From assembly GCF_057098645.1 (NCBI RefSeq), contig NZ_CM169472.1: 64,000 bases of DNA; one strand, 5' to 3'. Made by a program: the position numbers. Positions 55,501 through 61,500 of the stretch are shown piece by piece (within the stretch, counting starts at the first letter, position 1; every line of letters begins with the position of its first letter).

Positions 55501-58500
55501 TTCCTGTGTGGTACGCCGTCTGCGTTTCTCCGGCCCTAAGACATCAATCATCTGTTCTCCAATGACTAGTCTAAAAACTAGTATTAAGACTATCACTTAT
55601 TTAAGTGATACTGGTTGTCTGGAGATTCAGGGGGCCAGTCTAGCGCGTCACGAAATGTCATGCACATGTCACGACGAGTCACGACAGATAAAGATACAGA
55701 TAAAGATACAGATCAAGAAGATCAAAACACTATGGTCCATGGCGTAAAAAACGCCACGAACCAGGCAGGGGATGTTCAGACCGTCAATCCTGGTCAGCCA
55801 GCAGGCACGACACCGGAAGCCGATTCAGCGTATGCGCTGAAAGCCGATTCGGGCGCTGTGCAGCAGGTGATGACCGCAAGGCCGAAGCAATCACACCAAC
55901 TGCAGCAGCCTGAAGCCGATTCCGCCATTCAGCGGGAAGCCGATCGGGTAGTCCCGGAAAACACCGGGCTGTCTGTGGGACGAGTGGATTATCCGGATGT
56001 GTTCGAACAGGTCTGGCGGGAGTACCCGTTGCGTGCCGGAGCAAACCCGAAGAAATCCGCATTCAGTGCCTGGAAGGCCAGATTGCGCGAGGGGGTGCCA
56101 CCAGAGACCATGCTGGATGGTGTGAGGCGTTACGCGAGATACCTGGCGGCGACCGGGAAAGCGGGAACGGAATTTGTTCAGCGAGCGACGACGTTTTTTG
56201 GGCCGGACCGGAATTTTGAAAACCCCTGGTTGCTCCCGGTAAGCGGCACGAACAACCAGCGTTGTGTGAATCATATTTCTGAACCGGATACCGAAATTCC
56301 GCCGGGATTCAGGGGGTGATGTGGCATGAAAAACATTGCGGCAGCCGGGGTTCTTGAACGTATTCGCAGACTTGCACCACCGGCGTCGGTTCCACCGTAC
56401 CGGACGGTGGAGGAGTGGCGGGAATGGCAACTTGCTGAAGGACGAAAACGCAGCGAGGAGATTAACCGCCAGAATCACCAGTTGCGGGTGGAAAAAATCC
56501 TGAATCGTTCGGGCATCCAGCCTCTGCACAGCAAATGCTCGTTTGCGAATTATCAGGTGCAGAACGACGGGCAAAAATACGCGCTGAGCCAGGCCAAATC
56601 CATAGCTGACGAACTGATGACCGGGTGCACGAATTTTGTGTTCAGCGGTAAAACCGGCACCGGGAAAAATCACCTTGCAGCGGCGATGGGTAACCGGCTG
56701 ATGGCGAAGGGGCGCAGCGTGATTATCGTCACCGTGTCTGATGTCATGAGCGTGTTGCATGACAGCTACGACAACGGCAAATCCGGGGAAAAATTTTTAC
56801 AGGAGCTTTGCAGTGTTGATTTGCTGGTCCTGGATGAAATAGGCGTTCAGCGGGAGACGAAAAACGAGCAGGTGGTATTACACCAGATAATTGATCGCCG
56901 GACAGCATCACTGTGCAGTGTCGGGATGTTAACAAACCTGAATCATGCCGCAATGAGTACGCTTCTTGGTGAGAGGATTATGGACCGCATGACCATGAAC
57001 GGTGGTCGATGGGTGACGTTTAACTGGGATAGCTGGCGTCCAAATGTCAGCAATATGAGGGTTGTGAAGTAATTTTGTCCGGAGGAAATTTTAATGGAAA
57101 CCGTATCTGACGCACTGAAAGCACTGAAAAAAGCCTCTTCACATGTGGTGGCAGCTCGCCTTGGAATCAGTCGTGAAGAGGCTGTCAACGAGCTGTGGGA
57201 ACTCAAAAGAAATGGCGTCGTTGATAAAACTGGTCACACCTGGTTTCTGGCTGGCGAAGGTGAATCCCGGGTAACCGAAGAGCGGCCAGTAAAATCTGAA
57301 GCACAGGATATGCTGACCGGGGAGGTCGAACAAAAAGTTACCGCAGACATGATGATTGAGTTTATCGGTCAGGATGGGGCTAAAACGTGTGAGGAACTGG
57401 CGGGTAAGTTCGGTGTCAGTACTCGCAAGGTTGCTTCCACGCTGGCGGTGGTAACCGCAACGGGGCGGCTGGCACGCGTTAATCAGAACGGTAAATTTCG
57501 TTACTGCATGCCGGGCGATAATTTACCAGCAGAGCCGAAAGCCGCGCTGGTAACGGAAAGTGATGGTAAGGCCTTTCCTCAGCCAGCAGGTGCTGCGTTA
57601 CCAGTCCGGGAAGCCGCAACACAGGAAGAAATTAAAACAGAAACTGTGGCGGACATTGTGCAGCCGTTGCCATCGTTTACCGAAACGCAAGCAGATGAGC
57701 TGATTTTTCCGTCCCTTCGCAGGGCAAACCTGGCGCTGCGCAGGGCGAAAAGTGATGTTCAGAAGTGGGAGCGAGTCTGCGCCGCGCTGCGGGAGCTGAA
57801 CAAGCACCGGGATATTGTTCGACAGATTACTGATTCTTCCCGCCGTGTTGTATCGGAAAAGTGATTGCCGGAGGCGCTTATGGCAAAAGTATTTACACAG
57901 GAAGAGCGGGAAAAAATTAAAGGGCAGGTTGTTGAGCTAGTACGCCGGAGTGGGCGCGAGACGTTACGGCAACTGGAAGCCAAGACAGGTGCGACAAGAT
58001 ATCTGATGAGCGTTCTTGCCAGAGAGCTGGTTGCCAGTGGCGATGTATACAACTCTGGTTACGGGTTATTCCCATCTGAACAGGCTCGTAAGGACTGGCA
58101 AAACGCCCGCAAAAAACTATCGAGGGCAAAACTGAAGAAACCGGTTGTGGTTGATCCTGACCTTATCTGGTCATTACCAGACGGAGAAATACGCCGCTAT
58201 GACAGGCAATTGAACATAATTTGTAGTGAGTGCCGTAACAGTGAAGTGATGCAGCGAGTTTTGATATTTTACACAGGAGTAATGATGGAATAGTGAAAAT
58301 AACATGAAACCTTTGGATTCTGGTGTTTCAGTGGATGGGAAAAGAGCAGATACATAGAAAATGAATAGCAATAATTCACAGTCTGGATGTTGTTTGTATG
58401 CTTATAAAATGATCCTAGTATGCATTGCCGGAGTTGAATCAGCTCCAATGAAGAAACTGAGAGGAGTATTTAGAAGATAGCTAAATGGATGTAATTATTA

Positions 58501-61500
58501 GTATCTAAAAAATAGTATTTTTGAAATGGGTCTAAGAACACAACAATGTACAAATGAGAAGTTATCTTTTAATATGTTCAAAGACCCATTAGGATTGATA
58601 TCAGTTATGTTAGCTAGATTGATAAAGTGATTACATATTTTCTGTTATATGCTGAAATGAATAATGCTATTCCAGAGTGCAGCAGAGAAAGTCTCCTGAT
58701 GATTGAGCTCTGGAAATTGTACAATAGAAAAATTACTGTATTTTTCTGTCAAAATATTTCTCAAAACAGATTCCGCTTTGATGGCTTCAGGATATAAAGA
58801 TGCGGAGTAATCAAGGCTAAGATTTCCGTTAAGCAAGCATATACTTTTAGTGTGCTTTGATTCTGATATATCATCTTTAATTATCTTGATGATTCTTTCA
58901 TTCTGCCATAGAAGTGATGGTGCAGATATATAATAATAGTTAAAGCATGAATTATTTTTTAAGCAATCAAGCACAAAAATAGCACCTAGCGAGTGCCCCC
59001 ATATACCGATTCTGGAACTGTTCGGAGCAATAGTACTAACCCATGGCATGATCTGAGTTAGTAATAATTCTCGGAAAGACTGGCTTCCTCCACCAGTAAA
59101 GTAGATCCATGCTGGTTTAGAGTTATCAACAATAGCATTTTCACCATCAGGAGTATAATCGTAAGCACGGCGATGAATGCTAAGGTTATTCCAAGATTCA
59201 TAACCAAGTGTAACTAACACTGGTGGATTGGGTAGTGCATCAATAACAGGCAGAATATCAGAAATGTAATTGTTGGCACTATTCCCATCAAGTATATAAA
59301 GAGTTGCATTATTTTTTTTAATGTTTTTTGGAGTAAAAATACATATTTTATATTTGGTGTCATGGTTAATTGAGTTAAATATGCGTGTTTGACAATGAAT
59401 GTCCATATGTTTAGTCATGCGTTCTCCCCATGAGCATTAAAGGATGCTTAAGATATGCTATGTCACTGATAAAAAATTTGTTGTGTGTGTTTAGTTATTT
59501 TATCTACCTCCATTATGATTTAAGACTGATATATGTTATCAGCAAAGGTACATCGTTATTATTTTACCTGTCAATACATTTGATATTGATTATCGTTTAC
59601 ATCGCTTGCTTAGGAAATTGAAGGCAGGTAACTATCATGTCAATGAACTAACCCACAGTCTAACGTACTTCTTTCCCCAATCACCAACAACCAAATTCCT
59701 GTTATCACCACTGGGATTTTGGCGCAACTTCATGGTGCAGAGGTAAATAGCATCAAGCAAAATCTCTTTTTCCGTTGTTGTCCTTATGGGACGTCTGTCT
59801 TTCTGACCGATTTCATATTGGCGAGGTAATGGGAAGTTAAGTAGAATAGCTGCGGGTGCTTGAGGCTATCTGCCTCGGGCATGAACACCAACGGCAGATA
59901 GAGAAAAGCCCCAGTTAACATTACGCGTCCTGCAAGACGCTTAACATTAATCTGAGGCTCAATCTATGAACGGCAAATCTAGGTTAGCCTCTTACGTGCC
60001 GAAAGGCAAGGAGAAGCAGGCTATGAAGCAGCAAAAGGCGATGTTAATCGCCCTGATCGTCATCTGTTTAACCGTCATAGTGACGGCACTGGTAACGAGG
60101 AAAGACCTCTGCGAGGTACGAATCCGAACCGGCCAGACGGAGGTCGCTGTCTTCACAGCTTACGAACCTGAGGAGTAAGAGACCAGGCGGGGGAGAAATC
60201 CCTCGCCACCTCTGATGAATCAGGCATCCTCAACGCACCCGCACTTAACCCGCTTCGGCGGGTTTTGTTTTTTCCTGGCATTCTGGTTTACAATTCGCAC
60301 GCCAGCCTGAACAACTGGCACCTGCTGCGCCAGCAGAGACAACCGATGGCGCACGATACCAAATTATACAATTCTGATGATTCTGCCGTCTTTGCCAGCA
60401 GGCGCGGACGGTGTTTTCACGCATTCAAATCTGACTGGTACCAGCATCCCCCATGCACTGAAGAACAGGCCGAATGGCTCATTCAGTGTTACCGCAGGCG
60501 CGGATGCGAGGTTAAAAAAGCCCTTAGCCTCGACTACCGTCACTGGATAATCTCCGTCAGGCTCCCTTACTCCGAACGGCCACCGCGTCCGTCCCGCACA
60601 TTCCAGCAACGGATCTGGAGGTAATGTGCGGGTATTACTTCGACCTGTTCTGGTACCGGAACTCGGTCTGGTTATCGTTAAGCCAGGCCGTGAATCCATG
60701 CGGGTATTTCATGGCGGCAGGGTGCTGGTGGAGTCTGAACCGAAAAGCATGCGTAATCTGCCGTCCGGGGTCGTTCCTGCCGTTCGCCAGCCGCTGGCGG
60801 AAGATAAATCATTACTGCCATTTTTCAGCAATGAGCGTGTGATTCGTGCTGCTGGTGGCGCTGGTGCACTGTCTGACTGGTTATTACGTCACGTTAAATC
60901 CTGCCAGTGGCCTCATGGTGATTACCACCACAGCGAAACCGTCATACATCGTTACGGTACCGGCGCGATGGTGTTGTGCTGGCACTGCGACAACCAGCTG
61001 CGCGACCAGACATCCGAATCACTTGAGCAACTTGCTCAACAAAACCTGTCAGCATGGATGATTGACGTCATCCGCCACGCAATGAATGGCACACAGGAAC
61101 GGGAATTATCGCTGGCTGAATTATCCTGGTGGGCAGTCTGCAATCAGGTGGTGGACGCATTACCTGAGGCAGTATCGCGTCGTTCTCTGGGATTACCGGC
61201 GGAAAAAATCCGCTCCGTATACCGTGAAAGCGACATCATACCGGGAGAACAGACCGCCACCAGCATACTGAAGCAGCGCACAAAAAATATTGCGCTACCG
61301 CCTCACACCCACCAGCAACAGAACCCACCACAGGAAAAGACGGTGGTCAGCATTGCCGTTGATCCGGAGTCTCCGGAATCCTTCATGAAACGACCTAAAC
61401 GTCGCCGCTGGGTAAATGAGAAATACACACGCTGGGTAAAGACACAGCCGTGTGCGTGTTGTGGTAAGCCAGCGGACGATCCTCATCATCTGATTGGTCA

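Follow-up and report, generated by a model that had tools for sequence, protein, structure and literature searches.

The subject of this analysis is an esterase gene located in a 64,000-nucleotide stretch of contig NZ_CM169472.1 (RefSeq assembly GCF_057098645.1), referred to below as the window, in a region with 100% identity to lambdoid prophages from Escherichia coli that produces Shiga toxin (STEC). The gene is an open reading frame (ORF) of 257 aa on the minus strand (58645..59418), whose product carries a GHSLG motif at residues 141-145; gene and motif are present as claimed by the original prediction, which was made from the sequence alone. In the O157:H7 strain Sakai the same gene is ECs_1077 of prophage Sp4, annotated as 'hypothetical protein', while the RefSeq entry WP_000160654.1 reads 'alpha/beta hydrolase'. 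A literature search on ECs1077, WP_000160654 and phage-encoded siderophore esterases found no publication on this gene.

The longest stop-free run in the frame of the gene comprises 263 codons, a length that none of 2,000 shuffles of the surrounding island reached (shuffle maximum 178), and we therefore regard the ORF as real and not as a product of chance. Its ATG codon is directly preceded by GGGGAGAACGC, i.e. a GGAG Shine-Dalgarno site (59424..59427, minus strand, as read from the sequence) and a 5-nt spacer. The site is kept in a second allele of the gene, which shares 91% coding identity with the first.

The gene lies in AT-rich DNA, as predicted. Guanine-cytosine (GC) content drops to 0.30-0.39 over about 58150-59800, compared with 0.50-0.56 on either side, and the 1.5-kb stretch with the lowest GC content in the window is 58279-59798 (34.3%, against a window mean of 49.4% with a standard deviation of 4.1%, and about 52% in its own flanks). 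In prophages that carry a QueH gene in the same slot, homology to the window stops at 58278 and restarts at 59799. The exchangeable unit can thus be delimited to 58279..59798, a variable AT-rich cargo cassette that fills the slot between DUF977 and hokD in a lambdoid prophage. The placement between replication genes and hok was borne out as well: the DnaC-like ATPase gene (56326-57072), the DUF1627 gene (57094-57864) and the DUF977 gene (57865..58293, plus strand), which is the last gene of the replication module, lie to the left of the island, and the hokD toxin gene (60023..60178, plus strand; start of the mok ORF at 59966) is its right-hand neighbour. DUF977 and hokD were both identified by ORF calling and annotation.

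Family, fold and active site

The protein can be assigned with high confidence to the IroE/PfeE/BesA family of siderophore hydrolases, within which it forms a deep and isolated branch. In a phmmer search of the PDB the best match was IroE (2GZR; E=5e-26 over residues 8-253), the enterobactin/salmochelin trilactone hydrolase of the iroA locus (2GZR/2GZS), at about 27-31% identity. The next matches were BES (9e-13) and PfeE (1.5e-11, across the nucleophile region), followed by the fungal EstA/EstB. A search of 1.84 billion representative proteins returned 998 homologues at E<1e-3.

Structural comparison led to the same family. The AlphaFold2 model, based on 133 homologues, has a predicted local distance difference test score (pLDDT) of 90.9 and a predicted template-modelling score (pTM) of 0.91, and comprises a complete fold from residue 8 onwards. 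When this model was compared with the PDB using Foldseek, all of the top 30 matches were siderophore hydrolases (template-modelling score, TM, 0.73-0.82; E 1e-19 to 2e-14), the members being PfeE, IroE, EstA/EstB, BES and an 'IroE-like' Shewanella protein. The top structural neighbour is PfeE of Pseudomonas aeruginosa (6gi2/6gi1; E about 1e-19, TM 0.78-0.80). IroE shares with our protein the single-domain alpha/beta-hydrolase fold (TM 0.79-0.82), while BesA/BES, the bacillibactin esterase of Bacillus (2QM0), and EstA/EstB are also close in structure (TM 0.77-0.82) but less so in sequence (17-20% identity), their substrates being bacillibactin and fusarinines. The esterase-like alpha/beta-hydrolase fold proposed in the original prediction, with a siderophore esterase as its first option, is therefore upheld and narrowed to IroE-like siderophore hydrolases by the profile and structure-based assignment that the prediction itself had suggested as a check. 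On these grounds, and in view of its dN/dS ratio (see below), we describe the gene as that of an IroE-like serine esterase without a signal peptide.

Another option of the prediction, a carbohydrate or O-acetyl esterase, fared differently. Such an enzyme, comparable to the NanS-p sialate esterases of prophages, would be released by lysis to feed the population; STEC prophages do carry enzymes of this kind, a gene of the SASA family is found some 6 kb downstream of the esterase gene in this prophage, and the absence of a signal peptide is compatible with release by lysis. However, the first carbohydrate-active esterase appeared only at rank 34 of the Foldseek matches, with a TM of 0.59 versus 0.8 for the siderophore hydrolases. 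No SGNH/SASA or carbohydrate-esterase family was present among the Pfam and PDB sequence matches, and neither the fold nor the motifs of SASA/SGNH (NanS-p) enzymes were found in the Pfam, PDB or fold searches. As the protein belongs to another fold class and its gene runs antisense to both the early and the late transcription units of the phage, we attach next to no weight to this explanation.

The active site of IroE is recognizable in the protein. In the HMMER alignment Ser143 of the GHSLG motif, His240, Asp44 and Arg84 correspond to IroE Ser189 (nucleophile), His287 (general base), Asp90 and Arg130, respectively, with IroE numbering derived from a chain offset of 40; the respective codons are located on the minus strand at 58990..58992, 58699..58701, 59287..59289 and 59167..59169. 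Larsen et al. reportedly ascribed an active-site role to D90 and R130 of IroE in 2006. Across the 133-sequence family alignment no change is seen at D44, R84, D87 or G141, and conservation of H142, S143 and H240 is 96% or higher (Ser143 in 132 and His240 in 128 of the sequences). Several near-invariant family positions are changed in the esterase: L170 replaces Trp, and A146 and Q241 each replace Gly. Ser201 stands where 75 of the 133 members, including the IroE-like nearest relatives, have Glu, and the esterase resembles IroE in being devoid of Glu at the usual triad-acid position of the family. IroE functions with a Ser189-His287 dyad and no acid (PMC10515146, PMC7034887), and therefore a missing Ser-His-Asp triad is not a valid refutation for members of this family. 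EstB has a Ser-His-Glu triad, judging from the names of its PDB mutants (S148A, E211Q, H267N).

One departure from the nearest relatives concerns the N-terminus. These relatives are about 300 aa long, with a hydrophobic signal peptide at the start and a conserved PLGxNIADxGS segment after it, whereas the esterase aligns only from about their residue 50 onwards and its own residues 1-50 have negative hydropathy. When the upstream sequence was searched for remains of a signal peptide or for an extension of the frame, only stop codons were encountered. Because it has no signal peptide, the enzyme is predicted to be cytoplasmic. This is also the location of BesA; both BesA/BES and the fungal EstA/EstB act inside the cell without a signal peptide. 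In contrast, IroE is a periplasmic enzyme that linearises apo-enterobactin and salmochelin (PMC10515146, PMC7034887, PMC7403778, PMC8001512), and among related esterases Fes is cytoplasmic, while IroE, PfeE and Cee are periplasmic (PMC7403778, PMC8001512).

Selection on the gene and candidate Fur control

The second allele of the gene, found e.g. in strain HCP4S3_I4 (record L003), occupies the corresponding slot in a prophage whose replication module is different. Although the two coding sequences differ at 72 nucleotides, there are only 26 amino-acid differences and neither indels nor stop codons. The rate of synonymous change (dS) is 0.31 and that of nonsynonymous change (dN) 0.052, and the resulting ratio (dN/dS=0.165) shows purifying selection. 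Conservation extends beyond the coding sequence: the first 200 nt upstream of the gene are 88-89% identical between the alleles, and identity over 59419..59671 as a whole, a region likely to comprise the promoter and 5' untranslated region, is 84-89%, compared with about 76% on the 3' side, which is roughly the neutral expectation. Since coding and upstream identity both exceed that of the approximately neutral 3' region, the protein and its upstream region are both constrained.

These data bear on the possibility that the gene is a decaying remnant, i.e. an iroE-like gene that was 5'-truncated, and so deprived of its signal sequence, when it was captured and no longer has a useful function. 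The lack of a leader peptide would agree with such an origin, as would the insertion sequence (IS) elements found in or beside the gene in some strains and its absence from about 91% of E. coli genomes. A dN/dS of 0.165, the absence of frameshifts and stops despite 9% nucleotide divergence, the conserved Shine-Dalgarno site and upstream region, the complete and confidently predicted fold and the retention of all catalytic residues argue against decay. Moreover, of the 470 genomes with the gene, 466 have at least 80% of it covered at one place. In our opinion decay is very improbable.

Within the conserved upstream region a candidate sigma-70 promoter, ATAACA-16-CATAAT, is located at 59512..59539 on the minus strand (9/12 in a consensus scan), in a block that is 88-94% conserved between the alleles. 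A perfect TTGACA at 59569-59574 (minus strand) was considered as a -35 element and rejected, as there is no acceptable -10 sequence at a distance of 16-18 nt. Two Fur-box-like sites accompany the candidate promoter. Site 1 (59581..59600) matches GATAATGATAATCATTATC at 15 of 19 positions and the 7-1-7 motif at 12 of 14; with the sequence GATATTGATTATCGTTTAC at 59582-59600, it scores higher against the Fur consensus than any other sequence of the window. Site 2, TGATATATGTTATCA (59527..59541), matches 11 of the 14 positions of the 7-1-7 motif and overlaps the candidate -35 element. In the second allele site 2 is identical and site 1 has a single change.

The score of site 1 was calibrated on the ent/fep cluster of Sakai, in which the known Fur-controlled promoter regions fepA-fes, fepD-entS and fepB-entC score 13/19, 16/19 and 15/19, respectively, whereas the 16 other intergenic regions of the cluster, AT-rich ones included, do not exceed 12/19. 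Dinucleotide shuffles of 59419-59800 reached 15/19 in 0.13% of cases. Repression of the esterase gene by Fur thus has good computational support, which does not amount to proof. In an array study of EDL933, Z1341 was placed in the same expression cluster as the iron-regulated exbB and chuU (PMC2654852). Z1341 may be either the esterase gene or one of its neighbours, e.g. hok; the RusA gene close by is Z1344.

The cassette and its prophage

The prophage of strain E2865 that matches the window adjoins yccA and has the gene order initiator, DnaC-like ATPase, DUF1627, DUF977, esterase, hokD, DUF968, rusA, Q. Among 5,426 complete E. coli genomes the esterase gene was found in 470 (about 9%), almost always in a single copy. 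In 457 cases the copy is at least 99% identical to ours (O157:H7, O26, O103, O121 and O145), and the remaining 13 copies, with 90-95% identity, represent the second allele.

The comparative genomics of the island in related prophages, also suggested in the original prediction, revealed that its slot is variable. The DUF977 and hokD flanks lie close together in about 694 other E. coli genomes, and every sampled record with such close flanks has a plus-strand gene for QueH (epoxyqueuosine reductase) in place of the esterase (e.g. E. coli EC19, L002 3580-4245). With its sharp homology breakpoints, the slot appears from these alignments to be a point of cargo exchange. The deviant GC content, the orientation antisense to the early operon, the conserved upstream region with a promoter-like site and the replacement by QueH are all marks of a moron, and a terminator has been tentatively placed (see below). 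The cassette 58279-59798 is thus a phage moron, i.e. a self-contained, horizontally acquired cargo gene. In being AT-rich, independently transcribed cargo of a variable slot it resembles other STEC prophage morons (e.g. the NanS-p esterases, or the CPBP protease whose gene is located downstream of Q), but its enzyme family is a different one.

The island also attracts IS insertions. In O26:H11 strain 11368 (L009 1046-3131) and three other genomes IS1203 interrupts the esterase gene, and in strain E105 (L004 5121-7721) an IS3-family and an IS481-family element are inserted between the esterase gene and hokD.

A tblastn search of 50,697 phage records returned only four weak matches (about 29% identity), to bacterial-type iroE genes on contigs that are misfiled or large; none of the sequenced phages in this collection thus carries the gene. 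The BFVD viral structures contain only generic alpha/beta hydrolases (best TM 0.53-0.60) and no IroE-type fold. The only PHROGs match was phrog_8493, a family of unassigned function built from near-identical sequences, and no family of the PADLOC anti-phage defence models was matched at E up to 1.

AT-rich prophage cargo in STEC lineages that are positive for the locus of enterocyte effacement (LEE), in this case with a polar N-terminus, might suggest a type III-secreted effector or another host-directed enzyme, an effector being the last option of the original prediction. Effector loci are usually found near tail genes, whereas this gene lies in the early replication/nin region. It has no similarity to known effector families in Pfam, PDB or PHROGs, its closest relatives are periplasmic enzymes of bacteria, and it also occurs in strains from pig and fish that are not obviously STEC. 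Nothing in our results points to an effector function, which we find hardly credible.

The non-coding flanks of the gene, for which about 350 and 550 nt had been predicted, measure 351 nt after the stop codon (58294-58644) and 547 nt before the start (59419-59965). The sizes are thus correct, but the larger flank is a composite of three segments and includes the hok/sok leader. Its first segment, 59419-59671, is the upstream region of the esterase gene that is common to the second allele. The second, 59672..59798, is a spacer that occurs only together with the esterase island of the major allele (456 genomes), in which RefSeq places a 28-codon gene fragment at 59680-59763 (plus strand). The third, 59799-59965, already belongs to the hok/mok/sok locus, and the hok/sok regulatory region, lying outside the island at 59854..60028 on the plus strand, is recognized by the Rfam model of sok (RF01794; 107 bits, E=1e-24). 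In an Rfam search of the two flanks sok was the only hit, other matches falling far below their gathering scores.

In the 3' intergenic region (58294..58644) neither an Rfam family nor a canonical terminator was found. Because its divergence between the alleles (75.7% identity) is comparable with the synonymous rate (dS=0.31), we treat it as spacer, with the exception of one hairpin. This stable stem-loop (58525..58590, minus strand; -26.7 kcal/mol, z=-2.69 relative to shuffles) is located 55-120 nt past the stop codon of the esterase gene, with a U-rich tract after it (58505-58512). Although it differs from a canonical terminator and the evidence is weak, it may possibly mark the transcript end of the gene.

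Several further features of the region deserve mention. Sakai ECs_1079, an ORF of 45 aa (window 59784-59921, minus strand), overlaps the hok/sok leader and the island boundary, and is most likely a spurious gene call. Just downstream of hokD (60187-60268, plus strand) there is a sub-threshold Rfam match to isrK, an Hfq-binding small RNA (27 bits versus a gathering score of 50, E=0.004). At the other end of the replication module, an IS2-like element (54323-55596; ORFs of 136 and 301 aa, both on the minus strand) immediately precedes a 5'-truncated replication-initiator gene (55615-56319). The homology of the intact E2865 prophage to the window begins only at 55724, about 520 nt into the initiator gene, and the immunity regions of the two prophages are different. 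The prophage copy in the window is probably replication-defective. Finally, downstream of the Q antiterminator there is a second AT-rich island (62420-63400, GC 0.34-0.39) encoding a membrane protein of 274 aa on the plus strand, annotated in RefSeq as a CPBP-family intramembrane glutamic endopeptidase (Sakai ECs_1085), with a 14/19 match to the Fur consensus upstream of its gene (62529). This island looks like another moron.

Possible function of the esterase in the lysogen

We consider it somewhat better than an even chance that the gene is a moron coding for a diverged, cytoplasmic and Fur-repressed esterase of the IroE family that cleaves enterobactin-type siderophores at low iron; the substrate, the cellular compartment, the control by Fur and the benefit to the host are those parts of this proposal that we infer. 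The cargo gene lies, in antisense orientation, within the early-right operon of a lambdoid prophage of the Sp4/CP-933M type, where it occupies the DUF977-hokD slot. In the proposed reaction Ser143 of the GHSLG motif would be the nucleophile that attacks an ester bond in enterobactin or another catecholate trilactone siderophore, with His240 acting as the base and Asp44 and Arg84 completing an active site of the IroE type. Being leaderless, the enzyme would act in the lysogen's cytoplasm, the compartment in which Fes and BesA work. Repression of its promoter by Fe-Fur is probable, so that the prophage would express the esterase when iron is scarce and might thereby add siderophore-processing capacity to its host.

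Compared with IroE, the esterase lacks the N-terminal signal/anchor and is predicted to be cytoplasmic instead of periplasmic, stands alone in a prophage and not in an iroBCDEN cluster, is encoded by DNA with 34% GC and differs in about 70% of its residues. PfeE and Cee of Campylobacter are exported ferric-enterobactin esterases of the periplasm, encoded beside a TonB-dependent receptor and subject to two-component control (PMC8001512), whereas the esterase has neither a leader nor a receptor neighbour and carries a Fur-type signature upstream. With Fes/IroD it shares the predicted compartment and the likely substrate class, and fes in O157 lies behind a Fur-controlled promoter. In architecture, however, these enzymes are different: they have a Ser-His-Glu triad and, in addition, a further domain at the N-terminus (PMC10515146), a lid of about 150 aa, while the esterase has 257 aa and one domain. 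Fes was found only at rank 38-45 in the Foldseek comparison and gave no phmmer match to the esterase even at E up to 10.

Several observations weigh against the proposed function. Outside the E. coli alleles the nearest relative among the 1.84 billion representatives is only about 31-33% identical, and substrate specificity is therefore not confidently transferable. The match to Pfam PF00756 ('Putative esterase') is sub-threshold and covers residues 81-161 only (E=0.013, 15.7 bits), and a search of NCBIfam at E up to 1 was negative. PF00756 is present in the 31%-identical relatives. No siderophore receptor, transporter or biosynthesis gene (iro, fep) is linked to the esterase gene, whose neighbours in every context examined are phage replication genes, DUF977 and hokD, and not iroBCDEN or a catecholate receptor; likewise, there were no iron genes nearby on the metagenome contigs of the two nearest relatives outside E. 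coli. Since Fur boxes are themselves AT-rich, a match to their consensus within an AT-rich island is not conclusive, and the stretch at 62529, also AT-rich, scores 14/19. O157 already has Fes, which makes the benefit of a second cytoplasmic esterase doubtful, and the gene is dispensable in the lineages in which it is split by IS1203.

The main uncertainty is whether the siderophore label reflects ancestry only. The enzyme might have the same IroE-like fold and Ser-His chemistry but a different substrate, e.g. another acyl- or depsipeptide-type ester or a siderophore-conjugated toxin (catechol microcin), or it might be a general cytoplasmic carboxylesterase. Its identity to any characterised enzyme is only 27-33%, it is devoid of the periplasmic targeting of its nearest relatives and of any linkage to iron-uptake genes, and its changes at near-invariant positions (L170, A146, Q241) would suit such a shift. 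On the other hand, 30 of its 30 closest solved structures are siderophore hydrolases, the active-site quartet of IroE is intact, and the upstream Fur-box-like sites suit an iron-related role. We regard a change of substrate as possible, though on the unlikely side.

The esterase gene is neither a new mechanism nor a new system. As enzymes of this type are well known and the family has cytoplasmic members, the esterase is a diverged, prophage-borne member of a known family, and the result is a useful functional re-annotation. The re-annotation of ECs1077 provides a testable hypothesis, namely that a prophage modifies enterobactin processing in enterohaemorrhagic E. coli. E. coli is stated to have no IroE homologue (PMC7403778). 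It is conceivable, although we consider it doubtful, that a leaderless, Fur-controlled enzyme of the IroE type provides STEC lysogens with an activity not otherwise present in E. coli, i.e. a single cytoplasmic cut of apo-enterobactin yielding linear trimers, or the disarming of toxins linked to catechol siderophores, and that the prophage thus brings a lysogenic-conversion factor for iron and oxidative-stress physiology into O157, O26, O103, O121 and O145. In that case the linear trimers would be exported, and might protect against oxidative stress or shift the competition for iron in the inflamed gut. With cleavage of enterobactin-type siderophores, the function that we favour, the esterase would represent a rare case of phage-carried siderophore chemistry, as IroE-type esterases appear to be absent from sequenced phages and viral structure catalogues, and iron metabolism would join toxins, effectors and sialate esterases among the traits that prophages bring to STEC.

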